From Balanoglossus misakiensis (Eukaryota; Animalia; Hemichordata), in assembly GCA_040954595.2 (NCBI GenBank), contig CM082594.2, forward strand, positions 11,226,276 to 11,290,275: a DNA stretch of 64,000 nt. The letters run 5' to 3'. A program made the position numbers and the translations under genes. This document shows positions 2,999 to 61,248 of this stretch, one piece after another. The notes beneath the pieces were generated by a model. It saw only the letters and a program-made list of their open reading frames with translations. It was not told the DNA's origin and did not search any database. How positions within the stretch are numbered: the first letter of the stretch is position 1; each line of letters starts with the position of its first letter.

Positions 2999-3041
2999 GA
3001 AAAACAAAGACTAGCCGTCCTTGAAAGTGGAGTTACGGGAG
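2999..3041 (+). CDS. Gene A coding exon 2 (pro-region)
   Basis: Acceptor ...atgtctatatatag|GAA; 43 nt encoding EKQRLAVLESGVTG plus 1 nt; consensus donor G|GTGAGT. Phases 0 and 1 join exons 1 and 3 in frame. Confidence 0.8.
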
Positions 3042-3234: not shown

Positions 3235-3335
3235 ATGGTGAATACGTGCGTAATGGTGTTACAAGAGACGCTGAAGGGAAACGAGGCCCAGACCATGCAA
3301 AGACTTATTACCACTTTGGAGTTGGGAGGCGTTAG
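3235..3335 (+). CDS. Gene A coding exon 3: mature peptide GPDHAKTYYHFGV-amide
   Basis: Strong acceptor ttttgacttttctttcag|. Reads DGEYVRNGVTRDAEG-KR-GPDHAKTYYHFGV-G-RR-stop (TAG 3333-3335). Spliced CDS is 141+43+101=285 nt, 94 aa. Confidence 0.85.
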
Positions 3336-28084: not shown

Positions 28085-28201
28085 TGCGTCACATTGGTGA
28101 ACCGATTTGAATATAATGACCTAATGAGCTGAAATGGACCAACCCCGCGTATCTTCCCTGGAATCGTTAATTTATCGATCTTCTCTCCCCACCTTATAAA
28201 A
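28085..28201 (+). promoter_or_regulatory. Putative promoter of gene B
   Basis: CRE/AP-1-like TGCGTCA at 28085-28091; inverted CCAAT (ATTGG) at 28093-28097; canonical TATAAAA at 28195-28201. Confidence 0.6.
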
Positions 28202-28224: not shown

Positions 28225-28350
28225 GAGTTGAGGGAAACATCACGCTGCAGGACCCCGCGAAAGATAGCATCGTAACGGTCACGCCAACTTCGCCGATCAT
28301 CTTTGTTCAAAGACTAAAACTGAGTTGACAGAGAGATAGCTGGGAGACAG
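28225..28350 (+). other. Gene B probable non-coding first exon (5' UTR); start approximate
   Basis: Begins about 25-30 nt after TATAAAA, contains no ATG, and ends at a strong donor CAG|GTGAGC (28351). The matching acceptor is ttttcttctacag| at 31799. Confidence 0.6.
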
Positions 28351-31300
28351 GTGAGCTACACAATCATTGTTAACTTATTTTACATTCGGTACAGCATATA
28401 TCCAAACTTATGTTATAAAGGCTCCATTCAATCTATTGATGTCTTCCTTTTTAAAAACATTTATTGTTCTGGTGCAGTCATCTTGTACTTAACTAGGGCG
28501 TCTTTCAAAATCTACAAATCAACTTTCGTGTGTTTGTTTTTCAATCGCATTTCGCGACAAATTCGAATCAGCTAAATTGAACAGAAACACATCAAGAACG
28601 CGAATGCATCTTACAATCATTAACTGTTTGTAAAAACTGGTACGTTTTAAAAAGAGTTAGAAAGGATTAACTTTAAAAGATTTCATCTTAGCCGTCTTTC
28701 AAGACCTAGTCTGCAAACTCGTCTAAATGTTCCAGGTCTGCCTTTTGAATGGGTTATCCATCAGACAATTGTAATACCCTACTGAGCCGCAGAACTACCA
28801 GTAGAATGTAGTCGCGAATGAAGATGAATAGAAATTACAGAATAGACATACAAATATAACTAACTTGAATACATGTTAACTTCAAAGTTTACACACACGC
28901 AGAAGTAGGATACAAGTCAACATGAGTTTTTTGATCATCGGAGCAAATATATTTAAAAGGAAAAGGTTACGCGACACTTCTGTCTGAGTGAACGTTTTGA
29001 GAACATTTCCTTTCATGCTGTGTAATTCGCCAACAGCTATGCGGATAGATTTCATGTGTATAAAGGTTCAAACAGCCTAAGCGTGTCTAAGGAGTCGTCT
29101 TACAGTTTGCGTTTCACGTCATGTATTACGTGGCCCGTGAGTTTTTATATGGGCTTCGAACACTCAGACAAATTGCCGTCTAAAATTACAAGGAGAGAAG
29201 TAACTGACAGCGCCTTTACTGTAAAAAAAACTATAGTAAGGTTACAACAGTGACTTGGTTCTTGTTCAATCTCCACAGACTTCAACAGCTTTCAAGATAA
29301 ACCGTACACAGGCTAGTCATTGTCGTGAATCAGATGTTCGGTTGAATCTGTTTGTAATAGCTATAGGCCTCGTTTCAGCAGTTTGCCGGTTTTCTGTAAG
29401 GTGTTATTTTATGTTACCAAAGTTATTGTATTCATTAATTGGCACGTTTAAAACAGACTCAGATCCAAGCATTAAAAACAATAAATTGAAATGTAATTTT
29501 CCTGTGAGCGAAAACTGAAGACCATAAATCTCTCCTATACTGCAATTGAAAGATGTTTTACGACTGCGGATATACGCAATATCAAGTTTGATGGTGCAAA
29601 CGTTTATGGGCCTCTGTATACTGATCGCATAGAAAAGCTCTGTGATAGCTATATTCTGGTGCGTGACTCCAATCTGATGTTTAATGATTGTATCTGATTT
29701 TCAATATTAATTCAGATGGGAACTTGGAAGACACTATGTCAAACGGATTGTCGTCAGAGTACTTAATTTTTCTGGAAATGATGTGCCATGAATTGGTTAC
29801 TAAGTCTCATTATTATTTCGGTGTGTGCTTGGTACAATGCAGAGCGAGGCGATTTTCCACTTGAAGAATTTCATTAATAGTCCAACAGTTCTCATAAACC
29901 TATTCCATATGGAATGACCTTTTGAGGTAAACGTGTTTTCTTGGAAATTCGTGCGAGTCAAATGTCGTTGTATTTACTTTTAAATCTGATAGAGTCTAAC
30001 GTGTGCATTCTGATTATTTCTTTCATTCCGGAATCTGCAAGAAGTCCGAGATACGTGTTTTCCTGAAAACCGCGCGCTCCGCTTAGCTCTACTTTAAACT
30101 AGTTGTTGTATCATCCTTTCAAACTTTTGAGACAATTTACTATTCCTGTCACGAATTCTGCCATTGAATTCGATTTCCACGTTATAACGTCGTCAAATTC
30201 TTGCGGCCAAATGGTGTCTGACAATCAATCGAGATGCCAGGGCAGGTTTTCATGATCGGTGCAAGGGAAACTTGTACACATAGAGAATTCGATGCTTCAA
30301 ACCATGTTCTTTAATCACAGTGCACTGAAATATTCATATGAAGTGACAACTACTTTTAGTGATGAATTCATCTCGTTTACGAAGTGTGATTAAAATAGTG
30401 TTATAGCACTCACTCTTCTTTTCTTCATATGTTTGCAAGCAAAATATCATTAATGAAGAACCTGATTTGATGAAATGACATGGATGTTCCATTCGATTAA
30501 CATATCTTATTTTGTACTTGGGCAACTTTGGACACAGCGTAATTCAAGTTTCTGATTCCATAACAAGTAAACCATGTTGCTGTACTTCAACACTGAAAAA
30601 TGAACGACAATGAAACGCGCCTGAAAAAAAAGGGAAAACCAACCAGTATTGTTATAGTTTCTTTAAACACCGAGTTGCTCTAATGAATTGCTCATTTAAC
30701 TCCATCTGGTTGTCTGTAACATAAAGCCTTTGCAGCGTGCATGAATTCTAACTAATAATAAAATCAATAATGAAGGAATTCAGTACATTGATGTCGAAGT
30801 TGACATTACGACATACGAACTTTACAGCACAACTGATCATGACCTCCGTTATAACTTAATCACAGAAGCGTGTTTTAATTCCCAACGTTATTAATGTTCG
30901 AACACAGTCGTTTGAACTCTATACCGAGGTAATCGGCGCCCTGCTGTATGAACTGTCACTCTTAGAAAATACAGTTTGCTCAGATCTTGAAAGGGGACAT
31001 CTCCTGCCTGCTTTAGCGCCCACACGCACGCGATTATAAATCAAAAATGATGAAACGCCGTTTTAATCACGACGACATGCTGAGTGAGGTCTTTAACGCA
31101 AATCTACCACAAGATGTGTACTTTTTGTAGTGTCAATTTGTTATGAGTGAACGGTTTAAGCAGAACCACAGCAACATGACAGTTGGAATGTAAAATGTCC
31201 TGGTACCAGAAAGAAATATAGTTGTCTAATCAAAATCGGGATAAGCAATCCTTACATAGACAGCCAACTCGGTCTTTTTATTGTGTAGGAAGGGGAGTAG

Positions 31301-31849
31301 CGTTAAAACACAGCTCATCAAGGACAGATTGTTTGCACAGTCCAAGCAAGTGCTTTCAAGATCTTAATGGCAATTCCGGCTTTTAACGCAAAATTACTTC
31401 CTCAATTCTGGAGTATGTGAGGGTGTAGTTTTTCACGCGCACTCACGGCAACCAGCGCTTTGCAGAACTCAATCCTTATTTGTCCATTATGCTCATTATC
31501 TTTCCAATGTGAGAAAAAATGATTTTTATTTTTCTCTGATGTGCAAGAAATGGTTAATGTTACCGAGACCACTTTGCAGCAACTAAATGCGGCATCTATC
31601 AATACTTGTCAGATAGTACCTTCATGTACTCACCATCATATGGGTCAAATATATCACAAGTGTATGTTAAAATATACTTCTGTGATTTCTAGGTGTATAA
31701 AAGGAGGTTACATTGTATAGATGCATATTTGAAGGGTTTCCAACTGGAAATCCTGCATGTAAATGGTGATACCTGATATTCTACGCTTTTCTTCTACAGC
31801 TTAAACAACAGCATTTTATACCTTAAGACACACAAACTCCTTGCTCAAG

Positions 31850-32122
31850 ATGCGCCAAGTAACAATGCTTCTGGCCGGCTTCTTTGCCGTGTGCCTGCTC
31901 GTACAGACCGTGAGTGGAACTGCAGCCAGGTCGGGGAAACTCCATTCATACCAGAACTCTGGATTCAGTATGTTCGGCAAGAGGACCCCAGATTACCCAG
32001 CTCCAGCGATGGAGATTGAAGAGCTGCTCACAAGATCTATTGGAAACCTCTTAAGCCTCAAGAAACTCTTCGACGACGTTATAAATGCAAACAGCATGCC
32101 AGAAAAAGATATTCAAGAATAA
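31850..32122 (+). CDS. Gene B: amidated neuropeptide precursor (SALMFamide/kisspeptin-like), 90 aa, single coding exon 31800-32127
   Basis: True ATG is at 31850 (CAAGATGC); the ORF track starts at an upstream TTG. MRQVTMLLAGFFAVCLLVQTVSG (signal) | TAARSGKLHSYQNSGFSMF-G-KR | acidic C-terminal pro-peptide TPDYPAPAMEIEELLTRSIGNLLSLKKLFDDVINANSMPEKDIQE. Flanked by an acceptor at 31798-99 and donor AAG|GTATTG at 32128. Confidence 0.92.
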   Translation: MRQVTMLLAGFFAVCLLVQTVSGTAARSGKLHSYQNSGFSMFGKRTPDYPAPAMEIEELLTRSIGNLLSLKKLFDDVINANSMPEKDIQE

Positions 32123-34771
32123 AAAAGGTATTGTTTGTACGAATGCATGCTCTATAATCAGAAATTAAGACTTCAAAAATAATGTCTGTCTATCTCTTTG
32201 TCTGTCCATCCATATATCTGTATGTATGTATGCACCTACGTACGTATATGTACTAACCCGATTTTGTCCGAGCTGCACTGATCATTATGATCATCATCAC
32301 ATGTTTGTCACAAAGCATTAAAAGGGAAATTTAACAAAAGAAGACATATCGCTATATTTGAACCGTTGATTAAAGTTTGAATAATCATGTGTCAGGGGGA
32401 GATACAGAAACATCTTTATCACCAACGTGTGTTGACATATGTACATCGATGCACCTGGCCGCTCTAATTCTGTATAAACTATATTAAAGGGTACATAAGT
32501 GTGTTAAAAGTCGGGAAATAATCAATATTTGTCTGTGGCAACATTTGACATTTCCAGAGAAGGGCATGGTGTTGATTTGTGGAGGATATCGATTTTCTAG
32601 TCACTGTATATTTCACACAATATGAAGCTTATAAACACCACACTTCTTACAAAAACATCAATGGCTTCTACATTTAGAGATCTAAGGCAGCGTAGTCAGC
32701 AAAGACAGCAAATTCTCAAGCAGGATGTTAGTCAAAATGTGTTAGAAAAGTCGCTAGGAAATCTTTATTAGTACTACCCCAGAAAGAAGACAAGCTTCCT
32801 GTCAAACCACCTTAGTTTTTTTTTAGGAAAGAAGCTTTGTCTGTGTGCTGATAGTTAGCCTGAAAAAAAAATGTTCTCTGTCAAAATTTTTGAATTGCCA
32901 CCAAAATGTCATGGTAACACGTAAAAGCCACAAAATGTGTTATTTTAACGTTCACAGACGTAACAAGCTGACGAACTCGATGATCTTCATTGAAATTAAA
33001 TTGTCATCCCTCAAAGAGAGATACACTTGGGAATGGTTCGTGGGAGTGCATTAGTGAACCATAGCATTGTCATGTATTAAACGGTTCATGACATGGCGAA
33101 ACACTGTGCAAAATATAAAATAGAAAAACCGCATTTGCCAAATTATCAACGGTCTGTCAGCGGCATAATTGCAGCCTTTCCTCCTGACTACCGCAACGAC
33201 GAACAACTTCACTGGTAAAATTCAGTCGATTCAAACACTGACAGTGCTTCAAATTACACTTCCATCATTCTCGCGTTAATGCCAACAGTAAATAAACGCT
33301 CCGCATCAATTTGTCAAACGTAATTCAATTGTCACATGTTCAATGAAGTGAGAACAGTCACAGATGGCGAATTTCCTGTCTTCAAATGTATTTCCAAGCA
33401 GTGAAAACACCTTCTATAATCTTCATTTCAAGCATCAATTAACAATCAGTTTAAAGTGCGACTCACAAAATTGATGTCCGGATTAACTCGCAATATTTAC
33501 CTTAGCTTTACCCACCTTTTGTGACATCATGAATGCGTCATTTTCCAGCAAACAATTTTGTCAAATATATAGATTTGATTTTAATCTTTCCATTTTACAA
33601 ATGACTGGAGGGGACTGGTTCACACGGAATTTCTGAAAGCCCACAGTTGTAAGATCTAGTCTAGACAAATTAATTCCCTCACTTCAACTATATTTTGATG
33701 AATTTGAGAACGTGAGCACAAGGGGTTACAGACAACCCAAATATCCCTTCACTATTATAACATGAACCAGCGGGATCAGAACTGAATATTTATAAACCAA
33801 CAGAACCTGTGCTTCATATGCTAGATATTATAGGTGTCTCACAAAGGTGTGCAAAAACTGACGTTTTAAATATTTAATGTTGATACATTAAGCACGGTAA
33901 CGTGACTACATGTCAAACAAAGTTTTGCAAATATCACAAACCAATGTATAATACGAATGTAAGGAAGGACTCTTCTATGCTATTTTCATCATTCTATTGT
34001 ACTTGCTTGAATTTCTTGTATTTGCTATATGCCATTGAAAAGAGATGTTCGTCTTTGAGGTGCCGACTGCACGCGCGTTCTTCACTGCCAGCGGAAGAAT
34101 TAGTCGTCAGGGCGAAATAAGTGAAGCCAATCTGCACGAAACTTTTTGGATCTTTCAGCGAGCGTGGTATTTTGAGCTTACTTGGGGAAAATCAAATGAC
34201 TATCCGGGAGTAAAAGACTCTAAAACTCTTCTAATTTTAATTCCAAGCGAGGCCGAATACGTGAATTGTGGCTGTTTGAGACACCATTAGACTCCAACCA
34301 ATCGCCTTGTAGACTGCCGCAGCGGGCAGACGACACTATTAAACGGCATAGTGGGTACGGCGTTTTCAGATTGAAAAGTCTTGTAGTTAGCTTTGCCAAT
34401 AATAGCGAGGGTCCCCTGTGAAACAACTGCAAAGAAAGGTTGATATTAGCTGACGGCTACCTACGTGTGGTGAATGAAGACATATACGCAACTATCGATG
34501 ATGATTATTATCCAACAGTCTTCGATCACTGTTTCAGTATATCCTTATGGACAGACACACCACGAGTGAATAATTCTGGTCAACTTTGGTAATTCTTTCA
34601 TCACCTGTCTCTGTTTGCTTTACAAGGACATAGTCAGGAAGCCGGTGTTGACCAAAGAGTGACGTGAAAAGCCATTTCCACTGTCAGATATAAAGCACGA
34701 ATGTTCATGAATTTTTTTTCGTTTTAGTGAGAGAGCACCATCTGATTTTCCCTTCTTTTTTTTCTCTACAG

Positions 34772-35154
34772 ATAATTATCATCAGTGGTTTGCTGTTTCA
34801 CCAGATGTCTTTGTTTTGACTGCTGCATGCTGATCACCATATGCTAATCACTTCTTCGGTTTGATTACACCACAAGTCAATGGCAGCCCTCTCCTCTTGA
34901 CCAGAAGGTCACGGAAGGGTACATCGAATGGACCGTTCGCGGGAGACCTTTTCATTGTGTGATCACCGTATCATCACAACGACAGAGCACCAAGAATGAT
35001 AATACACAGTACAAAGGACTCCGCTTCACAATTGGAATACAGTTCATTTCTTTACCGACGCGAACACTTCATTTATCACATTTTTGTTGTTTTGTTCAAA
35101 TTGTAATTTTTCCACCTCTAGTGTACATTAGAGAATTTGGCTGTATACAATAAA
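34772..35154 (+). other. Gene B probable non-coding terminal (3' UTR) exon
   Basis: Very strong acceptor ttttcccttctttttttttctctacag| ending at 34771; AATAAA at 35149-35154. Confidence 0.6.
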
Positions 35155-38100
35155 TCCCTATGGCTTCATGTACATAAAATAAGCCACTGCGAGTGTTAAC
35201 TGTTAGTTGTTGATGTGTCATTGATTGCCCATGGGCATGCAACTGAGTTCAAGTAGAATGAATGTTTTCAAAAGTCGCCGGTTTGTCGGATGTGAGAGTC
35301 AAGCGACCTGAGCGACTCCTTCCAACTGTCGGGACAGTTTAAATCTGAAAGATAAGAGTAATGTTAGTGCTGTCTATTTTAAAAGTGGAAGACAACCTTA
35401 CACTTTATTCTCTAACACTTTCCAGTGGATCAGAGTTTGAAAAAATATTTGAGGCTGGAACTTTATGATATATTACTGAAACAGGGAGCATACTATTTTA
35501 AAATTCAAAATGGCCAATTGTTTTACCAACGATCATAGTACTTTCAGTCTTTTAAAAATTGCACTGTATCAGAAAAAAAATGGCTTCTAATTTGGCTTTG
35601 ATCACTCATTTTGTTCGTAAAGACTACAACTGTCTCCATTAACAACTTTGAGTCTATATCGGTGAAGCAATCTTGTAAACCAGAATATAATATTAGCTAT
35701 ACTAAAGATAAACAGAATTTCATCTCATAACAGTTAAAGGTATAATGGGAACGACTTTTGAGATAAAATCCGAGAGCGTGCTGAATCAGATACGCGCTTC
35801 TAGCGCACCGGCAGTGAATTTTTACGGCAACATTTGTCTCCAGTGCAATAAAAACCCAGTCTCTTTCAATTTGGAGCAAATTGCTAGAAACACCCAAAGC
35901 AGGCTGCTGGCGAACATTTGTCCGTAATTGCGGTTTTAAACGAAATCATGTAAACTTGATGTCTTCATTCTCGGAAAAGAGAACTTTTTATAGACTTGAG
36001 TTTATCCATGAAATATTTACGACCAGTTTACTGGCTCGAAGGAACGGTATTCTAAATTTCATCAATGATTAAATACACGGGGCGAGAATGTCTTTTCATT
36101 AAACGTTCCACAGAAGTGTATTTTATGGCAGAGATTAAGAGAAACATATTTGTTGATGATGTGTCATTAAACTGAGTTAAAACATCAATTGATGAACGTC
36201 ACAACATTTGCAGATTGAAATTTGGAATGAATTCAACTGGCTTTTATGAACATGCACATGTACTGGCACTGAACATAAAGGATCCTTCATCTCTGTTTCT
36301 TCACGTAAAAATATAATCACGCTACGAAGAGGAAAAACACAGAACGCGACAACACAAGTTATTTTGAAGGGTGTTGTCAAGGATTTGTCAATGTTCATTT
36401 GACATTTTAGATAAATCTTACTTAATCCGAGTTGGAGCAACGATCTGATAGATTGATGCCCACGGCTAAACGCAACACTGGAAAAGGCTGAGTGGATAAT
36501 TTATTTTTGGAAAGTACATTATTTAACGTTTTAGCGGGCTAATAATCTCACTCTATCACTCCAGGCATTAAACTTCTCCTACAAGAAATCACGCCTGCTA
36601 GGTGTAGTCTCTAGGTGACCTGAGGCCTGTTATGGTGAAGCACGTCGCTGAGGTTATTCGGAAAGCATAACGACAGAGATCTGACCTGCACAATCAATAT
36701 AACCTTTGCCCTGCTTAGGCTCACCCAACAACATCGTCGTGTCGATAAAGTTTAAACTGAACCGAGTAGATGACGATTTTTATCGACTTTTAAACCTGAG
36801 AAGTAACTGATTCTAACTATGTTCTATTTACGACAAGTCTTGCAAGACTGTAGAGGTTATAGCTACTCAATTTTGAAGTTATTTCTGGTAAAAAGCCACC
36901 GCTGCTTTACTTTCCGTGAAACGTTTTTCATCCCCTTTTCTACTGATTTCTCATCCTGGTTCTGTCTGTATCACTGACTAAAAAGAATCCATACTATCTA
37001 GTTATGTTAATATCACAACATCGATACCAATATTTCTTTGTTTGAATGTAAGATTTATGAGAAGCTATAGGTGATCAATCTATTTCCCGGAAGTGGTAAA
37101 TGCAAACATGCATCAAAGTCAACACCAGATATTCGTAATGGACGTGTCCCATGACAAGTGAAGAATTACTTCCTCAGTTACAGCTGAAACAGAAAGTGTT
37201 TCCGTTAACACAGCTTGTACTTGAAAGCGAATTGCCTGAAGACGTCCTTGCTTACTCATTCCCAGTGAATGAAAAAGACCTGAACTTAGTATGGAGCCCT
37301 TAGGAAACTCGTTAAATGAGTTTTCCAGATCCCTTGTGTATTTGAAACAAATAAGTAGAAAATAATACAACAGAAAAGGAAATGTTATTTCTGCCTTGTC
37401 GAAAACATCTCTGTCGAGGTTCTCCTTTGAATATCAGAAAGTCGCATTGTTTTCAAATGTTGTGTGTACTTTGTGTGTGTATACATGGACAGAGAAAACT
37501 GATCATTCCTACTCACTGTGGTATATATCGTAAGTGAACATACAAAAATGAATGTGTATTTGTGTTCGCATATTGGAAAGCTAACATGGAAAGTTAGAAT
37601 TCATTCAGCACTCACAAGAAATAGGCTTGATAAAGTTTTTTTTAACAACAGTGCCACAATATTCTTTACATATGTTGCAGAACTCAATAACGATTGAAAC
37701 AGATAATCCTGACCTGAAGGTTTGAAGCGACATGCCATGAACATCGTTGTTCGCGTTTATATCTGCTCCGCATTCGGGAGTCTTGCTGATTCATTTTATA
37801 ACGACATTTTAGGCCAATATTGTACAACGACATTTATAAGCCAATTTAAGGCAGCAGGATTTTCTCGTCAAAATATATTGCCAAGGATAAATTTACTGAG
37901 CAGTACGGCTGTCGTAAATGTGCTAAGAAATGGCGGCAAGGTGTAAATATGCGAACGTGAGCAAACCCGATTGGTGGCTCTCAGCTCACACTCTAAATAT
38001 AAAGTACATGCACGTTTGTTTGAAGAGAAAGAGAGAGCGAGAAAAATACTAAACACGAATACGTGTTAATAGCGAGGCGAGTCTTGAGCATACTGATTTG

Positions 38101-41623: not shown

Positions 41624-44537
41624 ATATAATGAAGGATGGGTACACATTTAGCCCCCCGCCTCTTATATAATTTCGTAGTCGCTGTCGATTCGTCTATACT
41701 AAATGATTAAACTTTTGACTGTTGTGGGTATGTTTATATCATTTTGATACTGAAATAGGTAAATGCGTATTCTATAACTTAATTTATGGGCAAAAAACTT
41801 AAGTTTACAGCCTCAGTTGAATTTTGATTTTACAATGACACCTAAAATTCAGAGCATGTACCAATCCCATCTATCGACAGTCCCAGTCAAATAGGCGTAA
41901 GTAGAATAATGGTGAACATTCTTTATCGTCAGCCCAACTTACTTAAATACTGCTGGACCACATCAACATCATTCATCAGTAGTTTTTTACACTTAGAGAT
42001 CATTTGCACAAACCACCAGACGGAGAAATGTGATGTGCTTTGTGACTGTGAAAGTTACGTGAACTCGAAAACAAAATGCTGATAAGGAAATTTATAAGTT
42101 CATGTCTTGCCAGCTGAGTGAGGTATTTATTATAAGAGAATTGTAAAAAAATCCATCACGTGCAGAATGTTGAGAAGTTCAGCTTGAAGCATCGAGATCA
42201 TGAGGACCTTCGTCTGATCAGGAAGCACTTAATGTTTCCACCTCAGTATGGATCAGGTGTTGTGTTACAACACGTACAGCGCATGAGCTAAACGACATCT
42301 CCACGTGCTCATGGTGATGTACAATGAAGTGGACTTCCAAAGTGTGAAACACTAGAATGCAAACGTGACCCCCTAAATCTCAAATTTTCAAAGTTCTCAT
42401 TGCTGGTCATATTCACAGAAAGATTCTGTCACATGTTAACAGCAAGGTTTGTGACAAATCAGACAGCATGTTGAACATTTCGTGCTGAAAGCGTTGGGTG
42501 AGGTCACGTGTTTTGACATGGTGATGGATCCCGTACCCATGTGACTGTGCATGTGAATTGACAGTGAGAATACCGCTGTTATTCTCGCACCTTCTATTTA
42601 GATATAATTGGCAGCCATTTTTTATCTTCGCGTCATTTTTGATCCCTGTTTTGAACAGCAATTGTTAATCGATTATACAAGCCAAATGATAAAATGACAA
42701 TCGTGTCTAAAACAGCAAGAACGTATGTCATCGTTATTACCACTTTTAGCAAAAAAAGTAAAATTACAACATCAATAAAAATAACATTATCAATTTGCTT
42801 GAAAAAGGATTTGCTAGAAAAAGGATCAACAAAACCTTCTATCAAACATTAAACATAGAGCACTTCTGAAATCAAGCGACAATACACTAAATGTTGTCCC
42901 CTTATACCTCCTGACTTTAATATTCGGTCAGAGAGTAGGCATCAGACGGCAAGAAAGAAAACCTTTCGCTAGCAGCGAAAAATACAAATTAAAGTTTTAG
43001 GTTGCCACAGGATACGGTGCAAACCAGAATTCTTTATTAGAGGGGATTTATGCCAAGATTTGTCATTTTATAAATCATAATCCTGACATTCAGAAGAAAT
43101 CCCTTTAAGTGGCGCAAATCCGAATGGCGGGATATAATTGCCCGTCAGGCATGGTAATTTAGAAAGCAAGCTGCCACGTTTCCTTGTATAGAATCAGCGT
43201 TATTTCTTTACAATTCCGGTAACAATGCACTTTATCGCAATATGAGAATTTAAGAAAAAAATTCCTATCTTATATTTTCTGTATAGTCTTGATGTGTGGA
43301 GAAATTAACGAGCACTTTACTGGTTCAGATTTCATACACTTTCTGGAGTAGTTCTGCGATTTTTGAGTGGTTATTTCCGATCGGGAAAGAGAGCGGGAAT
43401 ATTTACTTCCTGAACGAATTCCAGATTTCATATAAAAATAGTGTTTTACCATTAATGTATCACCATCTGTAACAAATCCAGTTAATAAAGTACCAAATGT
43501 CGGAAGAATTTCATTTCTTCCTCATATTCTGCTTTTTCATGTATTTCATTTGTAGCATTATATAAGACGGATTTTGTGGACATCAGTTGCGGCTCAGTTG
43601 TACTGTTCCACTTAGAAACGATTCTACAGCGAACACGGCACTTATCAATAGGAGGTAAAGGGTTTCTAATCCGTGGATATTGACATAATGACGTCATGTT
43701 TGCCTCCTTCAAGACCAAGATCACTATTGAGAGGTTGTATCCTTTTGAAAAACGTTCGATATGCCACACACTCCATTTTCTCTGGGAGTGAAAATTGGTT
43801 AAGTAACTCTCCTAAGGTCGAATGAATTAAGTGCACATTTTGTAAAAGCAATTCTTCCTGGGAAGTACAGTTCATTGTCTCGAAGTACATCTATATTCCA
43901 AAAAATTCACATTGAGAGTCCCAAAAATGTCTATTACACATCGCTAAATTGTGTATCTTTGCTGTGGTTGAAAAGAGCAGACCAGGCTGATTTGCGATAC
44001 ACTTTCTACTTTCAGAAAATACATATGGTAGGTAACACAAGCGTTTACCTATCTGTACTGTCACTATTTGGGTTTGCTTTGAAGCTAATAACTCGTGCTT
44101 AGGAACAAACAAGCGCAATAAATCGTGGGTCCATTACTTAATTAAAATAATAGCTCAGAGAATAAAGTGAAGGCTGCTACTCTCGCCCACATGTGGGATA
44201 ACGTACGTATTGTCTTATTAGAGCTGTCAAAATATCACTGAGTTTAGAGGGAGTCTACAAATGACGCAATATGACACAGTGGAGAACTCAGATGTTCCGC
44301 TCGCCCACACTATTCAGAATTGCGAAATTTCTCTGACAAGATCCACACAGAACAAAAAGATATCAGGAAATAAATCCCCCTTATTAAATCAATGTATCCT
44401 GGTAAAACATAGGAATAGTCAAAAACAGTAAAAGATATAAAGTTAATTAGTATAAATCACAATTCACACTTCCAGTGTGTCAAATTTACTTTTTATGTGA
44501 GATACAAGAATTTGAAATGATATACGTTTTTTTCCTG

Positions 44538-44541
44538 AGAG

Positions 44542-44592
<51 letters not shown>

Positions 44593-44604
44593 GGGGGTGG
44601 GGGT
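44538..44604. repeat. (GA)n microsatellite followed by a G-run
   Basis: More than 20 GA units, then ggtggggggggggtgggggtgg. Confidence 0.95.
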
Positions 44605-45102
44605 GGAGAAGAGATACAGACAGATGTTGAGTAAGTTGTTAATTAGCATTTGCACAATATGCTACAGTCTTGGTAATAACACTTCAACGACCAAAGAAGT
44701 TGTAGTTGGTGGATCCACGTGACTCTGGGCAGGACCCGCATCTAATTAACAGTCGTGGGATCCCACTGCTTACGACAGCAAATGTTGTTAGCGAATGAGG
44801 GAGAGGCACGAAGCTCTTATGCAGCACTCGGCATTAACAAAATACCCAGGAAGTTTACGGCTTAGCAGAAACAACTCCATTAAGTATCTCTACTTAAAGG
44901 CCTGAAACACCTGTGACCATTGAGACAGTTGTCATTTGGACTTGCGAGAGGGAACAGTACACGTATCGTGTGAGACGGAAAAGGAAGGAAACACAGGACT
45001 TAAAAAAAAGGACGTCTTGAGAAGATTACAAAATCGAAGTTCGTGTGAAAGAAGTGATAGTTTGGAAGACGGAATATCTTCCATTAAGTGACTTGGTTGA
45101 AG

Positions 45103-45115
45103 ATGGCTAAAACAG
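45103..45115 (+). CDS. Gene C coding exon 1 (MAKT plus 1 nt)
   Basis: GAAGATGG Kozak context; donor CAG|GTACGT at 45116; phase 1 matches the exon 2 frame (G+AC = Asp). Confidence 0.7.
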
Positions 45116-45317
45116 GTACGTACTTTAACAGGAATTTGACATTTTCGACGTTTCTCAAAACTTTGGCAAGGGCAGAACTTGCAATTAGCCTCCATGTAAA
45201 CGTCTTCACACATTTATACAAACCGGATACATATTTGCTATGTTCATGTAAAGACCAAATGTCATTTTAAAAATGTGGACACACTCCAATGTAATATTGT
45301 TCCATTTTCCCTGGCAG

Positions 45318-45566
45318 ACTGTCACCACATACTCCTGTTTATAGTGCTACAACTTATAATACTACATGCAGCTACGGCGTTTCTATACAGAAATCAAGTC
45401 ATACGACTGGGCAAGAAGTCCCCACCATACTCGTACCAACCAAAGAGCCCCTTTACTTTCTTCGACACCGATGGAGACGGACAATTATCACAAGACGAAT
45501 ATCAACGTGTCCCACAATTTAAACTCACGGCAATGTTAGATTCATTTCAGGATGCAGACCTAGACG
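45318..45566 (+). CDS. Gene C coding exon 2: signal peptide, candidate amidated decapeptide, EF-hand 1 and start of EF-hand 2
   Basis: Acceptor ccattttccctggcag|. Reads (D)CHHILLFIVLQLIILHAATA|FLYRNQVIRL-G-KK-SPPYSYQPKSPFTFF-DTDGDGQLSQDE-YQRVPQFKLTAMLDSFQDA-DLD(G). Donor G|GTATGT at 45567. Confidence 0.9.
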
Positions 45567-46194
45567 GTATGTGTTGTGTTTTTAATAATGATTTTCTTAC
45601 ACCATCTGGAAAAAAAACCCCAGCTCATTCTTATACCGGTACATTATATTGATATTTGAGGTCAGGGTATATAATTCATTTGCCTGCATGAAAAAAAGTT
45701 AAACTTGTTCATACTTTCTCTTAGAAGACAATCAATCAGTATGCGCATGTAGCTGCGGATACCAAAAGCACAAAGGAATATCTTGAAATATGTAACCAAC
45801 CCTGATCAATTTTGCCTGTTTGTAAATTTGATGGCACATCATTGTTCCACAGAATCATCGATCTTTTATTGATTTTCTGTACAGCTGCCTTATAGGTTAT
45901 TAAATCTGGTCTCTTCTATGCATCTCCGGAATAATCAATAGCAAGATTACTGTCACACTACAATGGGATATTAACATATGGCTTTAAAAGGTGCTCAGGT
46001 TGACAAAATTGATTCTCGAGGAAGCACTAGCGTTTAATCTTACGACAGCTATAACCCTGTATTAGATATTCTAAAGCAGAACCTTTGTTGAAAATTTTAT
46101 AGTACCTAATATACACCCACCATTTTTGAACCCACCTGTGTAGCCGAATGTGCCAGATTTCTCATTCTGAAAACTAAACATTCATAAGTTACTT

Positions 46195-46287
46195 TTAACC
46201 CTTTCAACCCCATTTCCCTGAATAGAGGACCGACTTCACCATAAAGAACAATGGGTTTGGACCAAACCATGGTGATGAAAGGGTTAA
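46195..46287. mobile_element. Short TTAA-flanked MITE (piggyBac-like termini), copy 1
   Basis: TTAA-CCCTTTCA...TGAAAGGG-TTAA terminal inverted repeats; homologous to the reverse complement of 50383-50472. Confidence 0.75.
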
Positions 46288-49200
46288 ATTGACATGATAG
46301 TAGGAAAGATTTATGTTTACATTCTGTCTTCATTGTGCTGACAATTTATTGTTCGGAATGACATGGCTTAAGACCCATTAGTAAAGATTTGCTGGGTAAG
46401 CGCTCTGACTCCTCGAAAGACACTTATAAGCGATAAATCACGGCATATTAACAAAATAATGGGGGTTCATTTGCAGAGAGAAGGATTCTGTGCTCTTTTC
46501 AATGATTTATGACTGTCCATTTTCATGTTTGTGGCAAAGGCATACCTACTCCACTTAAATCAAATCTTGATATTTCCACGACTTCAGAAATGGCACCCAT
46601 GGGAAGATGCAAGGCTGAACATTGAGACGCGATCATTTCAGTCTGAAAAGAACTTTCTGTAATTCGAATCGCTTCCTTCGTAAAGCATTAACTGTTTGAA
46701 CAATAAAGCAGCGCGGGGTAGGGCATGCCATGAGATTTTGACCACTTCAATACATGAACGCACGAGCGCTAGAAATGGTCAAAATTGGGAGGTCTACCGC
46801 TCTCTGGGTTGTTTTATTTGATGTTATATTTTACCAGTCTATTGAAACAGTGTATAAAGCACGTTTTCAAATAAATTTCGATAGTTTCCCAACTGATGTT
46901 CAAGCCCAGTTTTTGAGGCTTGAGAGCAAGGCAGTAAAGACGTCGGTGCTATGTTTTTTCCCTTCAAAATCTAGTCAACTACCACCGAGAAGTCATAATT
47001 ATATGCATACATAACTAATGAGCTGCTCTTACATTTAATAAACTAAACCGTTTGCGCGTACGAAATGTGATGACACAAGACACTGCATAAATGAAGTGCA
47101 AATTGAACAGATATCGTAAAATCGTAGGATTTGCCAGCTTTGTCTGAGCGGGTATGTCTCCGAATTTAATATCTGAGTTTCATTAATGTACAAATCGATT
47201 ACAAACAAAAAAGTTGAAAAATAAATGTTCTACACAGTGTCCAGACAAACAAGACAACTAAACGTTATTCACCATAAAACCTTCATGAGAGACGGTTGCC
47301 CTGCATGCAGTTTTAGAGTGCAGCAAAATGGGCATTTGTCATCAAATATAATTCCGCTAGGATGTGTGTGCATTTTCTCGGTGCCGACGATTAGGCGGAA
47401 AATAATCTTCGTGCGAAGAAACTGCTTTTAATAGATACTCGGTTTGACTTTTCCAAAACCCATAATGGCTAAAGACTCTCTCTCCAATATTTGAGGCTAT
47501 CCGTTCAGAACAAGACAATGGCACAACATAATAAATAAACAGGATAGGCTGTTTTTTGCGTTACTATTGGGAGGTAGCAACTCTGACCTTTGGCCTGAAT
47601 ACAAAAAGTAGCAATCTTTTGGATGGATCATAGTCACGCAAGGAAATGACTACGCGTCTTCGATAGGATGTGTTAGTACTGTGAAATGCATTGACATATT
47701 GACAGAAGGCAGGAAGAATACTGCCATCATTTTATCTTTTATGAAGACCATTGAAACATATCATAAACATAAGACATGAACGATAAAGATATCTATGAAA
47801 CGCATCATCAATTCCCTTCAAACGCTTCTCGACTTATATCATGGGTTTAGATGTGTTATTTTCATTGAGTAGTTCCCTAAATCATTAAAATTTGAATCAC
47901 ACAAGCCAACTGAAATAAATGTCAGGAATAGAACCACCACAAAACGATAGTTCAAAAAGGCATTACTTGGGATAAACGAGTTGTAAGCGACTTACAAAAC
48001 TTCATACCCATGCCTAAGCTTATAGATTCGTAACTCTTTCATAACCTCAACTATTGACAACCGCGACGTGTTAAGCGTGCCACCTCATATAACGCCAATG
48101 CTGTCGCTAAACCGTACATGAAGCAAACCCTCTCTGGTGAAATGCTTAAAATTCTGTCGATTTTTGCAGGCTACTTTGTGCTTATTTTTGTTTTGATCGC
48201 TTTAAAAGTCTTGTTGTCTGTGATAACAAAGTAATCACAGAGGCGTGAATTTACCATCTGGACACGAAAGGCTCTTTTAAAATGGCGTTAATGTTTCACA
48301 GATCACTGTAAATCATGAATAAGCATGCAGGGCTTGACGAGGTTAAACTTTGTCACTTTAAACTTTAACATGAGTCACGTGCAGTCAACATGGCTTACTT
48401 TGATATTTAGATAAATGAAATAAAGCAAATAATTGCACGTTGGCTGTTTTAGTTGCTTTTTGTATAATATACTGGACAACAATTGGTGAAAGCAATACAT
48501 ACAGGATAAATGTTCCATTCGTGAGTCCCAGTACGGCTAGCCTACCATCCAGAGCAACTCCATTAACAAACCACATTTCATATACAAATCTAACTTCTCC
48601 TCAAATCCCCAGGTGAACTGTGACTCCATGAATCACACATTACTTGTACACAAAATTTAACATTATGATTTACATGGTAACATACACTTATGGTTAACAG
48701 TCATATACCTTCCAGGAGAAACGTTAGTGCGTCATTAGAGAGCATGAATCAAATGACATCTTAGTTCTTTCGGCAGATCCGCAGGGATCTCTGTTTTTCC
48801 CTATCCTGTTTATTATAGACATAAACGATTCACCTATAAAACATACAACTATGTACCTGTCAGCTGACAATTCCAATTTCTCCAGACAAATTGAAGCTGA
48901 CTCTTCATGTTAGCAAATAAGGATGCTCAGAGTTAGGCACTGTTGCAAATTCCAGGAAATCAAACATGATCATCTAGTTCCTTTCATAGGTCTTGGAGAT
49001 CTGTACTAATCCATATCCTGCTGTTGAGTCAAAGAAGAATTCTGTTTCTGCCAGGCAAATTTTATGATAGTGACACATATAACAATATTTCTCTTAAGTG
49101 TATGTTCGAGCCCATAAGCTTGGGTAAGGGGGTATTCTGTCCTAAGTCCCAAAATAGGGCACGATAGTGTATAGTACGTTACACTGAACCTGTTACACCA

Positions 49201-50472: not shown

Positions 50473-50795
50473 CATAAGTCAATATTTAATATTAACCACA
50501 CTCTCTTGCCATCTCTTCTAATAAATACTGTTAAATATTCAAAGAGTCTTGCCACTTTCGCTAGTAATAAAGTAACACATAAGAGTGTCTTGTGTGAGGT
50601 TTAAAGGCACAGACTTAATATAACATAAGGTCTGAATATCGGGTTCTGCTACATTGTTATTTTAAAATTTACTAAAGTATGAAGCTTAACATAGATCACT
50701 GTTATATCATACTGGTATTTTCTGGTGATGTTTTAATAATTCTTACATGATTTTTAATTGAACGACTTTTTAACTTTGTTTCATTTCGATTACAG

Positions 50796-50887
50796 GTGAC
50801 GGACTTGTCAATACCTTGGAGTTCTTTTCAAAGATGGCCAAAGTTCGATACGCGGTGCAAGAGGACACGCAGAATATTTCCAGCTAG
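50796..50887 (+). CDS. Gene C coding exon 3: completes EF-hand 2
   Basis: Acceptor ctttgtttcatttcgattacag|. Phase 1 gives (G)DGLVNTLE-FFSKMAKVRYAVQEDTQNISS-stop, completing the loop DLDGDGLVNTLE. AATAAA at 50924-50929. Spliced CDS is 13+249+92=354 nt, 117 aa. Confidence 0.88.
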
Positions 50888-56800: not shown

Positions 56801-59800
56801 ATATAAGGTTGCATTGTACCGTATATTATACGGCTACACTGTCTATCTGATAATGTGTTGGGACATTTACAATCGAACTTTCACGTATTAATTTTGCCAA
56901 TATTTTAGATTCAAACATTGTTGTGCCTGGATTTAACAGTCAAGCATACATCACCATTTTATTTCATTGCATTCAGAATATACCCCATTTTAAACACCAG
57001 CCAATAATTGCGGAGGCATTGAAGGTAGAGCCAATTTTATTCGGTCTCTATATAGTACACTAGATTCTCAAAGACATGCAGTTTAAAAATGTGGAGGTAC
57101 AGGGTAATTTTTTTTCTCAAGGCAAAATGTAAATTATGGTCTTTTTACTTATTAAGGTTGAACAAACCTCATCACATGCTCTGAAGGCATTAGGCTCGAC
57201 ATTCGTTTGGAGTTCCATTGACGCAGAATATGCACAGCGTGTCTTCAAGCGACGGGATTTGCTGTATATTCTAGAATGTGGTCAAAGATGCTGAACGGAT
57301 ATGACACCCTTTCCAATTGTGTTGCACTTACGCATGTATCTTTCTCTAACATTTCGGAGTTAACTCGACGAAAATTTCACTTTAGGCATCTCGGAAGGTA
57401 TATATTCGACAGAGCAAGTATCCATACGCGGTCAATTTTAAACAGCAACACCAGAGGGCGTAATCAACATCAGTTCAGTTCCCTTTTCATGCTTGGCTGT
57501 GAATTAAAAAAAAACGCTCAGGAAATACAGTTTGACGTACGCTTCAACTCAAGTTTAAACGCCGTGGCAGAATCAACAAAATTCTAAAAGAGAAATAGCA
57601 CTCAGATAAATGCACCTAATCTGAGTCGCGATTTAAAATATCAAATTGCAGCGCCCCAAACCTTTCAATAAAACGTTTACCATCATATTATACGCTGGAC
57701 GCTGACTACAGAGGCAACATCTCCATGTATTTCAATGATCGTTTAGGAGAAACTGCCAGCAGAGAGATCAAATTTTGAGCAATAACTCCTATAACATGAC
57801 TGCAATTGTGTCGCTTACAAACTAATAACTGTAATAGCAGACTTTATTTATTTCCAGCAGGGATCTTAATTCGTCTCAATAGCAAACGTTACTCACCAGG
57901 TATTGCTTTCTAGCACGCATGCTGTGTTATTAATGGGATTGAAGCAGCTCTATAGCAGCAAGTCAAGTTGGACATCTTTTTCAATTTATTCACCTCTCAT
58001 CAATATTTTGCAATTAAAAAATAGCGTGTTGCCGTTTAACTGCTGTTGTATGTCTATCCTATGCTGAGACATGGTCAGCGTTTTTAAGAAGGTAAAATTA
58101 TCATAAATATAGCTAGAACAGAAAAGTCTATATTTTTTCTGGAAATAGATTCACAGAGTGCATCGTAGATAAAGTGTAAATTCTGCCTTTATCACAATTC
58201 CACAGAGATCAGACAAAGAAGTCTGCTTTCATGGTTTTCAAGATAATACGATAGGTGGAATGAGGGAACATATGGGCTGATACATTAATAGCAACCAAGT
58301 TGTATGCTAAGCTCTTTATGCAGACTGTATTTATTTGAGAAAAGCTTCCAACCATAATCAGATCAGATTAGAATATGGCCAAAATACTTGATAATGGGAC
58401 GATTCTGTTCTAAACGTATTTGACATGCATTAACATTTGAAACCGGTGCAACGTAGAAAATGGGTACTATAGGCATGTGATAGAGAAAAAGAACTAAACA
58501 CACTTTTTGATTGTTAGTCCATGGGAGGCGCTTGCTTTCATCACATGAGTCTATTTTCCATCTATCTTCGCTGTCAGATCGTAGTGCAAATATTTTGGAG
58601 CGACAAACATGTGCAAGTAAAAAGCAAGAGTCCACAATATTCAATTTCCTACCACCACCTGACTTCATGAGTGAATTTCATGTACGCGATATGCACAAAG
58701 TATGCGGCGATTTGCTAGCCCATCTTTATACTCCCTTGCGATGCAGAAACCAGTCACTTTCTAAACACCAACTCCCGCTTTCACCACATATCTGCAGCAG
58801 CCGCATCGCCCTGACCTTCTCTGGAATTACACATATTGTAATGACATGTGCCTTTCGTTTAAAGCTACTTGAAATGTAAACTGACTTGTAATTTGCCTAA
58901 AATGTTCTGAAACCATTACCAGGTAATGACACCATTAGCACCGTATTAGACTCTACGCATGGCTGATCTTATGGTGATACACCTTCATTCGCTGAGATAA
59001 AAGAATGCAAACATTCATAAGAGTTTTTCTTCTGTTAATCTTTTCCTTGCGGTGTCTTTCTGATGAATTTCTCTCAGAACTTAGATTCCTGTGTTAGCGC
59101 CGCTTCTCCACTAGATTTAAATGTCATCGCGCGCAGATATTTTCTGATCTGCAAAGTTGAGTACGGCACCAACTCTCAACATTCAAATGATGCGACTCTA
59201 TGAAAAACAGTCGCAAGTAAAAAAAAACCCTGAAAGTATACAAAATGTATCGAGTTCCCACAAGGTGCGTTTTGTGACTAATATACTTTAATTTACTGGG
59301 GCGAGCACTACCCATTTATGTTCAGACAGACCCACCATTAGCAATTGCCTTGAAGTGCTGGCGGCCATCTTCCTTCCTTTTTCTATACGGCATCTGTAAT
59401 TATTTTTAATGTTTCTATCGAGTCAACCGTTGCTTCGAATTCGAAACCAGAATGGTCAATGAAAAGATAGATGGTTTTATCAGCTACGATATTTAAACTC
59501 AGGAGTAAATACTCTCTATCTGTCTGTCTGCCATTGTTTTTAGTCATGGTAATTAACTTAAGTTTAATTCTGCGAAAACCCAGTGTTTGTCCATTTTTTA
59601 AAGATGTTATGGATATTCACGAATAGCGTGGGACATTTCTGCAATTCAACAAATGGAGACACAATTCAATGTTTAGATGCGGCAACACTTCACTGAAAAT
59701 TATGTAGCCTCCTTGCTTGGCAAGTTTCTAATATTCGAAAGAGGATGACACATAGGCGTCATAAACGTCTCTATTTCAATCAAAGTTTGGGATACTTTGG

Positions 59801-59976
59801 CATTTTTAAAAAGTACTTTAGTACAGTACTTGTTTTCAGATTACTTTCATACTGATATATTTGAAACATACAACCCTGGTTAACAGACATTGACGCAATA
59901 AAAATCCCTGAAAACTCATTTTCTTTGTCAGAGAACAACATTCCTGTTCGATGTAGTATTCCGACTATTGTCAAGA

Positions 59977-61248
59977 TAATTGGGGGCACAAGCGCCCTCA
60001 GGCGGCTTGTGCCCCCATTGTTATTGTTGGAATTTTTCTTTATTATTATTATTCTTCTTCTTCTTCCGAGAAAATCGGCCAGGTAGATCTGGGAAACCGC
60101 TGCACCTAGGGGGCTGAAACTTGGTAGGGTGGTAGGGGCCAATGAGTAGACGTGCAGTGGCTCGTGAATATTTAATTAGTCACGTGACCTGGCGGCCATA
60201 TTGGATTTCCTGAAAATCGTTAAACGAGTCCTTCTCAAAAGCTGCTGGGCCGATCGAGTTCAAATTTGGTGTGCAGGTAGCCTACCTTCTGTCCATCATT
60301 TTACCCCTTGAAATCATGACGTCACACATAAAGTTTTTTTGCTACAATTGTTTTTCTGAAAAACTACTTAAAACTTTAAAAATCTTCTTCTCCAGAACCA
60401 GCGGTTACCGAGTCTCGGGATTTGGGATATGTGGTCACCTAACCTATGTCTATCAAGTTTGCGAAGCGCACTGTGATTGGTCGATCATTATGGCGGCCAT
60501 GTTGGATATTCGGAAAACCATTGAAAAGTGATAATTCTGTTTTGTAGCCAAAATGTTGACAGCATGGAAATTCTTTTTTTGGATATGAGTCATCATATGA
60601 CCGGAAGTTGTCACAATTTTTCGGGGCAATTTTCACATGACCTTTGACCCATTTTAAACAACTAATTATATATGCATAATCCCCATACCTCCTCTTGTCA
60701 AAGCACCACAGTCATGAATTTTGTGGACATGGATACCAATGCTGCCAGGACATGACACAAATATTTTGGTATTTTTGACAATGACCTTTGACCTATTTCT
60801 GAAACATAATTTTTCTGCATATCTAATTCCATGCTACCCAATAGGGCTAGAGGTCTGGTATTGGTTGGACATGGCCCACTCTGGGGTCAAAATTTTATGC
60901 CCTAATTTTGGGTGACCTTGGGTGACCTTTGATCTACTTTCCCATATCTCAGCATCCAGAGCAGTTAGAGCCCTGGCTTTTATGGGGATCGAGCACATAA
61001 TGGAGTCCTACACAAAACCTCATTAATTATGTGCATACCTAATTGCAGGCGAACCAATAGGGCTAGGGGTCTGGTTTTTTGTTGGATCTAGACTAGTATG
61101 GGGTCCAAATTTTTTGACCAATTTTGGGGTGACCTCAGGTGACCTACTTTCCCATAACTTGGTATCCCCAGCAGATACAGCCTTGGCATTTGCTGGTCAC
61201 CATGGGAACCGCTTGTGCCCCGCCAACGCTGCTTGCAGCTTTAATTTT
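59977..61248 (+). mobile_element. Non-autonomous Helentron-associated (HINE/DINE-1-like) element
   Basis: 5' sub-terminal GGGGGCACAAGC (59982-59993) with an adjacent inverted copy GCTTGTGCCCCC (60005-60016); (TTA)n(TTC)n microsatellite; internal duplicated blocks (ccaatagggctag.ggtctggt at about 60838 and 61054); 3' sub-terminal CGCTTGTGCCCC (61210-61221); 3' hairpin GCTGC-TT-GCAGC (61228-61239); T-rich end. Confidence 0.8.

Follow-up and report, generated by a model that had tools for sequence, protein, structure and literature searches.

A transcribed hemichordate gene for a predicted YQNSGFSMF-amide precursor, a likely relative of brittle-star NP27

The 64,000-nucleotide stretch of Balanoglossus misakiensis DNA analyzed here (the window, in which positions count from its first letter) contains a real and apparently undescribed hemichordate neuropeptide precursor gene, whose product is predicted. 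The reading that we favor, with somewhat better than even confidence, is that this three-exon gene encodes a secreted precursor of 90 residues that yields one peptide ending in YQNSGFSMF-amide, that the gene is likely orthologous to NP27 of brittle stars, and that the peptide would act on a GPCR (G protein-coupled receptor), most likely of the kisspeptin type. The gene does not represent a new type of system; that SALMFamides and kisspeptins are related is already established. It supplies a concrete candidate peptide for hemichordate kisspeptin-type or SIFamide-type receptors. The hemichordate ligands of the kisspeptin-type and neuropeptide FF (NPFF)/SIFamide-type systems have been named as undiscovered, and as necessary for resolving the evolution of both systems, in papers of 2014, 2022 and 2026.

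Gene structure and transcript

Three sequencing runs (X1, X2 and X3), all from one sample that is possibly the window's own, cover the stretch. In X3, the smallest of the three, a single contig of 891 nt corresponds to 28234-28350, 31800-32127 and 34772-35193, with GT..AG at both joints; 24 letters at its end match nothing in the window. The cover of X3 extends to 5 of 30 bins and is confined to the exon, whereas X1 and X2 each cover all 30 and show no comparable loose (splice) ends among the matches listed. Because the exons are covered and both introns are skipped, X3 is read as RNA despite its label 'DNA?'; the run search returned no RNA-labelled run covering the stretch. The read evidence thus comes from one sample and is silent on tissue and expression level. 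The gene has the following elements.

28195..28200, + strand: putative TATA box-like element (TATAAA), 39 nt upstream of the point where the observed transcript begins (sequence)
28234..28350, + strand: exon 1, non-coding, with donor AG/GTGAGC (spliced X3 contig; its 5' end is the contig end, not a mapped transcription start)
28351..31799, + strand: intron 1, 3449 nt, GT..AG, in the 5' UTR (spliced X3 contig)
31800..32127, + strand: exon 2, carrying the whole coding sequence (spliced X3 contig)
32128..34771, + strand: intron 2, 2644 nt, GT..AG, beginning 5 nt past the stop codon (spliced X3 contig)
34772..35193, + strand: exon 3, 3' UTR, with AATAAA at 35149-35154 (spliced X3 contig and sequence)

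The coding sequence is an ORF of 90 amino acids at 31850..32122 (+). Its start codon is the first ATG of the transcript, upstream of which there is no other, and the sole base difference between contig and window (31975 C>T) is silent. A filter for ORFs with a Met start, at least 80 amino acids, a signal-like core and an amidation site returned one match in the real window, the focal ORF, and none in 150 second-order Markov windows, which keep the trinucleotide make-up of the real one. Since the filter gives no match in the simulated windows and the ORF sits on a spliced contig, it is not a product of chance.

In X1, one difference-free contig at full depth (31751-32126) runs across the coding exon, and the intron stretches that flank it split into allelic bubbles among the matches listed. 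The undivided coding exon, set against its bubbled flanks, gives a weak hint of constraint.

Predicted precursor and processing

The precursor has the general features of amidated-peptide precursors, namely a signal peptide (by hydropathy), a Gly followed by a dibasic site, and a transcribed gene. Its parts are as follows.

31850..31918, + strand: signal peptide (predicted), residues 1-23 (hydropathy; cut site by eye)
31919..31975, + strand: mature peptide (predicted), residues 24-42, with a YQNSGFSMF-amide end (sequence)
within 31919..31975, + strand: possible shorter mature forms, from Arg27 or Ser28 (sequence)
31976..31984, + strand: Gly-Lys-Arg, amide donor and convertase site (sequence; role from established knowledge)
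31985..32119, + strand: C-terminal associated peptide, 45 amino acids, 0 Cys, two amphipathic stretches (hydrophobic moment)
32009..32068, + strand: NP27-like tail M-x-x-E-E-L-L-x4-G, then N-L-L-S-L-K-K-L (by-eye comparison with a 28-row NP27 alignment; shuffle tests)

The preliminary description of this DNA had already placed the ORF and the peptide, followed by GKR, at these positions and had taken the gene for a single-copy amidated neuropeptide precursor; the sequence, the predicted signal peptide and the transcript bear this out. The hydrophobic core extends from about residue 4 to residue 18, with a 9-residue hydropathy of at most 2.83; the signal peptide was judged on hydropathy alone and its cut after Gly23 placed by eye. 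Hydrophobic moments are at most 0.59 and 0.68 in the two amphipathic stretches of the C-terminal peptide.

The length of the mature form is less clear. A 15-mer had been proposed to arise by monobasic cleavage, and the Arg needed for it (Arg27) is indeed present; however, monobasic sites usually have a second basic residue 3-6 places upstream (PMC8557429), and Arg27 has none. The 15-mer is no more likely than the 19-mer, or than the 16-mer that would result from signal peptide cleavage after Ala26. The computed monoisotopic masses are 2087.00 for the 19-mer and 1687.78 for the 15-mer.

In the proposed pathway, the signal peptide would be removed in the ER after Gly23, a PC2-type prohormone convertase would cut at Lys-Arg with trimming of the basic residues, and PAM would convert Gly43 to the amide. 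The amphipathic tail probably aids sorting and would not itself be amidated. The peptide would be released from neurons, and its C-terminal aromatic-amide end would engage a rhodopsin-type GPCR. Both PC2 and PAM exist in S. kowalevskii, where they are expressed in neural territories (PMC10508912).

Similarity to brittle-star NP27

The closest counterpart is Ovnp27 (GenBank MF155251), an orphan precursor of O. victoriae (PMC5627052; preprint 10.1101/129783) that was found with a SIFamide hidden Markov model (HMM) at a high E-value and whose peptide adjoins the signal peptide (PMC5627052). The comparison was made by eye on the sequences of the PMC5627052 supplement and carries no formal alignment score. 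The two precursors are of similar length (about 84 residues in NP27 and 90 in the focal precursor), start with M-R-x-[IV]-T, and have one F-amide peptide directly behind the signal peptide, followed by GKR. The peptides, G-R-I..Y-Q-T-G-Q-I-F-GKR in O. victoriae and G-K-L..Y-Q-N-S-G-F-S-M-F-GKR in B. misakiensis, share the pattern G-[RK]-[IL]..Y-Q..[TS]-G..F-G-K-R. Behind them, both tails lack Cys and contain, in register, an acidic segment M-x-x-E-[DE]-[VL]-L-x4-G, as well as a helix motif N-L-L-x-L-x-K-L whose first Asn is followed by another 13 places later; the motif begins 18 residues past GKR in NP27 and 21 in the focal precursor. The four common elements stand in the same order (by eye).

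By-eye counts found the tail motif N[LM][LM].L.K in 23 of 28 NP27 rows (one of the five misses is truncated) and in a single one of 43 O. victoriae precursors, NP27 itself. Plain shuffling of the focal tail (200,000 rounds) produces it in 0.068% of cases and shuffling that keeps the hydrophobic pattern in 0.19% (567 of 300,000), and it occurs twice in the 127,996 six-frame residues of the window, the focal gene included. The motif was, however, chosen after the match was seen, with about 43 families and a few motifs in each open to matching, and taken alone it is therefore only suggestive (roughly 0.1-0.2). NLL by itself is frequent, being present in 4 of the 43 O. victoriae precursors (by eye) and in 4.5% of shuffles, and precursors that are unrelated also have Leu-rich helices behind GKR. 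A regular expression for the peptide (8e-5) was shaped to fit the focal peptide and is thus not a fair test. The case for NP27 rests on the combination of the tail motif with the layout, the peptide and the acidic segment.

There are also differences. The focal core is two residues longer (YQNSGFSMF versus YQTG[TQ][FI]F): of the NP27 core I-P-V-R-Y-Q-T-G-x-[FI]-F, present in all 28 rows, it keeps Y-Q, [ST]-G and F-GKR, while I-P-V-R is replaced, with H-S standing where NP27 has P-V-R, and two residues are inserted. The focal precursor exceeds NP27 by five residues after GKR and falls four short before NLL. It lacks the second G-R site, which the NP27 authors took as a second amidation site; this site is also missing in 2 of the 28 ophiuroid rows (by eye) and so is not strictly defining. 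Finally, the two animals belong to different phyla, one being an ophiuroid echinoderm and the other a hemichordate.

On this comparison by eye, the gene is probably the hemichordate orthologue of brittle-star NP27 and likely the first NP27 relative outside ophiuroids. The literature searched reports NP27 from brittle stars only, and the sea cucumber and crinoid supplements searched did not contain it. The sequence of a crown-of-thorns ApNP27 was not found in the six supplements of the paper in question, and that name may follow another numbering. If the orthology is correct, the peptide would trace back to the ancestor of echinoderms and hemichordates, its receptor would have been kept in both phyla, which narrows the receptor search, and NP27 would become a candidate for five orphan starfish kisspeptin-type receptors.

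Database searches

No family was returned for the focal precursor by Pfam at E<=10, and a word-based protein search (lengths 49-158) gave one candidate and none at E<=1. No orthologue was found among the proteins of Ptychodera flava and Glandiceps talaboti. A representative search of 1.84 billion proteins gave three matches at E<=0.001, NP27 not among them. The two of these that were read (P0004 and P0005) are repetitive and unrelated; the third is of 3390 amino acids (17 stretches). The exact focal sequence is absent from the protein collection searched, none of the 591 pattern matches in a metagenome scan was confirmed, and two matches among PDB sequences (E about 0.9) are noise. Within the window, there is no focal paralogue (best other tblastn match E 0.13). 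The focal precursor matches a relative of gene C, described below, at E 0.048, which is not significant. A text search of the literature on the focal peptide motifs returned unrelated papers only. Ajnp9, Ajnp23, Ajnp25, GLRFA, GN19 and Arnp21-24 are unlike the focal precursor, judging from their sequences or descriptions. These searches returned no database relative, and the closest match by eye, NP27, belongs to a family that was not considered in the preliminary description.

Language-model neighbors in the ESM Atlas, at 0.90-0.93, come from a mixture of neuropeptide families (spexin at 0.93 and galanin at 0.92, besides neuromedin B, GnRH and PrRP), the same family appears in only 3 of the best 10, and the recognition value is 2264, under the 2300 mark of the tool. 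Unnamed clusters, including 'Kisspeptin 2' at 0.87, all lie below 0.9 and serve as leads only. The neighbors support a short neuropeptide precursor of the single-peptide type and no particular family.

These searches bear on the foremost alternative to NP27 orthology, in which the peptide is hemichordate-specific, or the ligand of some other orphan ambulacrarian receptor, and the likeness to NP27 is convergence between short precursors. It is consistent with the lack of a sequence relative in any database search and with the mixed language-model neighbors, which point to a general layout only; KP2 peptides, moreover, have twice been misassigned on sequence likeness (PMC9400282). Ambulacrarian receptors of the QRFP, galanin/allatostatin-A, tachykinin, leucokinin, ETH and neuromedin-U types have no known ligand according to PMC5627052 and PMC9400282, although for QRFP a peptide of 25 residues ending in RF-amide is expected (PMC4062910), whereas the focal one has at most 19 residues and ends in MF-amide. 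Against convergence, the peptide, acidic segment, Gly and helix motif line up with NP27 both in order and in distance. We regard this alternative as unlikely, though it deserves more weight than any of those discussed below.

Candidate receptors

The receptor is the least certain part of the proposal. If the gene is the NP27 orthologue, its receptor should exist in both echinoderms and hemichordates. Kisspeptin-type receptors are numerous in both groups, and 5 of the 11 in A. rubens are without a ligand (PMC9400282). Those of hemichordates fall into clades 1, 2, 3.1 and 3.2, and a paper of 2026 lists their ligands as still undiscovered (PMC13020265). SIFamide/NPFF-type receptors, in contrast, are reported absent from echinoderms (PMC4062910, PMC5627052), an absence that a SIFamide-type receptor for an NP27 orthologue would have to explain. 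Both receptor types had been named as the ones to assay in the preliminary description, a choice in keeping with the reports that the hemichordate ligands of both are undiscovered.

In spacing, the NP27 end Y-Q-T-G-x-[IF]-F is an exact counterpart of starfish ArKP2.2, F-Q-S-G-G-I-F (PMC9400282), which activates ArKPR3, a chordate-like receptor of clade 1, and is myoexcitatory (PMC9400282). More generally, the ophiuroid NP27 pattern aromatic-Q-[ST]-G-x-x-F-amide (PMC5627052) matches the KP2.2 spacing (PMC9400282), and NP27 may be an unrecognized kisspeptin-type ligand; a link between NP27 and kisspeptin-type receptors was not found in the literature searched. Because of this spacing, the many orphan kisspeptin-type receptors and the reported lack of SIFamide-type receptors in echinoderms, we lean tentatively, and with less than even confidence, to a kisspeptin-type receptor for the focal peptide. 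A SIFamide/NPFF-type receptor seems only about half as probable, and the remaining weight falls to other orphans (QRFP, galanin/allatostatin-A, tachykinin and others).

The possibility that the hemichordate GnIH/NPFF/SIFamide-type receptor has its missing ligand in this peptide, with the protostome SIFamide layout retained, deserves separate consideration. S. kowalevskii has this receptor, whose ligand was described in 2014 as 'anticipated, but remains to be discovered' (PMC4062910). As in SIFamide precursors, a single peptide adjoins the signal peptide (PMC5627052); the S-M-F-amide end resembles S-I-F-amide (PMC6200920, with which the SIFamide motif quoted in the preliminary description agrees); and NP27 itself was picked up by a SIFamide HMM, at a high E-value (PMC5627052). 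The NP27 authors nevertheless judged that likeness convergent, since echinoderms lack the receptor (PMC5627052). To arthropod SIFamides, the likeness consists of the single peptide behind the signal peptide and the S-hydrophobic-F-amide end, and neither N-G-S-I-F nor an RKPPF core is present in the focal peptide. Arthropod SIFamide precursor tails carry a Cys pair, which is missing from the focal tail (0 Cys). Molluscan FFamide shares the layout, with the peptide behind the signal peptide, but its NSLFF core is not found in the focal peptide, which also differs from the N-S-L-F-F end of oyster FFamide; only S-x-F-amide is common to the focal peptide and the SIFamide and FFamide ends. A SIFamide-type ligand is therefore a doubtful reading, although it and NP27 orthology could both be true; echinoderms would then have retained a receptor that was overlooked, or NP27 would have switched receptors. 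If it were true, the brittle-star orthologue would show that echinoderms did not lose that ligand.

A broader and comparably doubtful scheme would combine these elements into an ancient ambulacrarian NP27 system, in which the acorn worm peptide, with its SIFamide layout, activates the GnIH/NPFF/SIFamide receptor and the KP2-like end ties the system to orphan kisspeptin-type receptors.

SALMFamide and kisspeptin precursors

The preliminary description had seen in the peptide a 'missing link' intermediate between SALMFamides and kisspeptins. The sequences it quoted for starfish S1 and S2 and for human kisspeptin-10 agree with PMC9400282, and the N-S-x4-F-amide spacing of kisspeptin that it noted is confirmed in the focal peptide. 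A literal intermediate status is not supported: the gene lacks defining features of both families, and the link is not missing, since work of 2022 established SALMFamides as ligands of kisspeptin-type receptors. Judged by defining features, the gene is neither a SALMFamide nor a kisspeptin precursor. Position -2 of the peptide is Ser, neither Leu nor Phe (the end is S-M-F, neither L-x-F nor F-x-F). A phase-1 intron separates the signal peptide from the peptide in kisspeptin and KPP1 genes, and a phase-0 intron does so in SALMFamide genes; the focal coding sequence has no intron and thus neither of the two. Among the precursors listed in Additional file 13 of PMC9400282, none has a lone peptide directly behind the signal peptide.

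The resemblance to chordate kisspeptin and KPP1 peptides lies in the N-S-x4-F-amide spacing. With Asn at -6 and Phe at -3, the focal peptide has two of three chordate kisspeptin features (Asn at -5/-6; Phe or Trp at -3/-4); the third, Asn at -7/-8, is absent, these positions being Gln (-7) and Tyr (-8). The peptide differs in lacking Leu at -2 and in having Gln for the second Asn, and the precursor in having no phase-1 intron and an N-terminal peptide. A KP-type precursor of S. kowalevskii (GI:187123982), proposed in 2016 and known here by description, contains two peptides, whereas the focal precursor has one.

KPP2 is in part the better fit. The KP2 peptides end in G-x-F or G-x-x-F with an aromatic core (PMC9400282), and those of crinoids have H-x-F. 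The focal peptide is similar in its His and aromatic core (H-S-Y versus H-x-F; PMC9400282, PMC9793003), in [ST]-G, and in a small residue at -2 and a hydrophobic one at -1 ahead of the F-amide. The single coding exon, also shared with KPP2, is a weak character, common in short genes. The focal peptide differs by G-x-x-x-F, whereas KPP2 has G-x-F or G-x-x-F and NP27 itself G-x-x-F; moreover, KPP2 precursors are of 150-260 residues, with their peptides behind a long spacer.

A true SALMFamide-type precursor, or a SALMFamide-kisspeptin intermediate, acting on a clade-3.2 receptor, is improbable on these grounds. The peptide does share S-G, S-aromatic and N-S-G with S2 and M-F-amide with S1 (PMC9400282), its L-H-S recalls ArS1.5 and SpS1.1 (PMC9400282), clade-3.2 receptors exist in hemichordates, and ArKPR5 has been predicted to have SALMFamide-related ligands that are still undiscovered. 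However, the likeness to S2 takes three gaps across 15 residues, the focal peptide is one residue longer than SALMFamides, and it is present in one copy, at the N-terminus, without L-x-F or F-x-F and without a phase-0 intron in its gene; none of the SALMFamide precursors compared (PMC9400282, PMC5627052) has the focal tail.

The weakest reading takes the gene for a processed copy in DNA, or for a non-coding transcript whose ORF arose by chance. It could appeal to the 'DNA?' label of X3, to the lack of a protein record of the focal sequence and to the peptide being so far without detection, and is scarcely credible given that the X3 reads lie on the exons and leave out both introns at GT..AG, that the ORF starts at the first ATG of the transcript, that no comparable ORF arose in the 150 simulated windows, and that the lone transcript difference is silent.

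Neighboring genes and repeats

Two further predicted genes for amidated peptides lie in the window.

2660-2800, 2999-3041, 3235-3335, + strand: gene A, predicted neuropeptide precursor, about 93 amino acids, three coding exons (predicted)
about 45103-45115, 45318-45566, 50795-50887, + strand: gene C, secreted peptide and EF-hand pair (predicted)

Counting the focal gene, one strand thus carries three genes predicted to encode amidated peptides in a 50-kb stretch (2660-50887), between which no other protein-coding gene was recognized (12 ORFs put to Pfam). The three peptides are too unlike for a paralogue call.

The predicted product of gene A begins with a signal peptide, followed by an acidic spacer. 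Its one peptide is C-terminal, KR-GPDHAKTYYHFGV-GRR, which ends in Y-H-F-G-V-G-R-R and stands behind a predicted phase-1 intron. The peptide end is near the allatostatin-A xFGL-amide pattern and its start is like sea-urchin KP2.1 (G-P-H-A..Y). Ambulacrarian galanin/allatostatin-A-type receptors have no known ligand according to PMC5627052. A homologue search with the first coding exon gave five candidates and none at E<=10. As in the focal gene, there is a splice donor directly after the stop codon.

Gene C is predicted to carry F-L-Y-R-N-Q-V-I-R-L-G-K-K right behind the signal peptide, followed by the EF-hand pair; its EF-hand exon (45317-45568) matches Pfam EF-hand_5 (E 5e-7). The exon has only two relatives (both of the two candidates), in P. 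flava (89%) and G. talaboti (68%), each annotated as 'uncharacterized' (XP_070536172.1 and XP_077993093.1). On this one gene, the animal would likely be placed near Ptychodera among the enteropneusts. The 13 residues FLYRNQVIRL-GKK are identical in both, and since they are invariant while the exon is only 89% or 68% alike, conservation of the amidated peptide is suggested. This layout of a peptide plus EF-hands recalls that of molluscan sensorin precursors, a link for which no support was found in the literature examined. X3 gives no cover of gene C, which is uninformative.

Several repeats were also seen: a short tandem repeat with units of about 40 nt at 2100-2210, a GA microsatellite with a G run at 44532-44614, and, at 59780-62450, motifs of the kind usual in dispersed repeats or in non-autonomous elements (an impression from translations). 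A short repeat at 46238-46290 is present in many X3 transcripts (>70 contigs).
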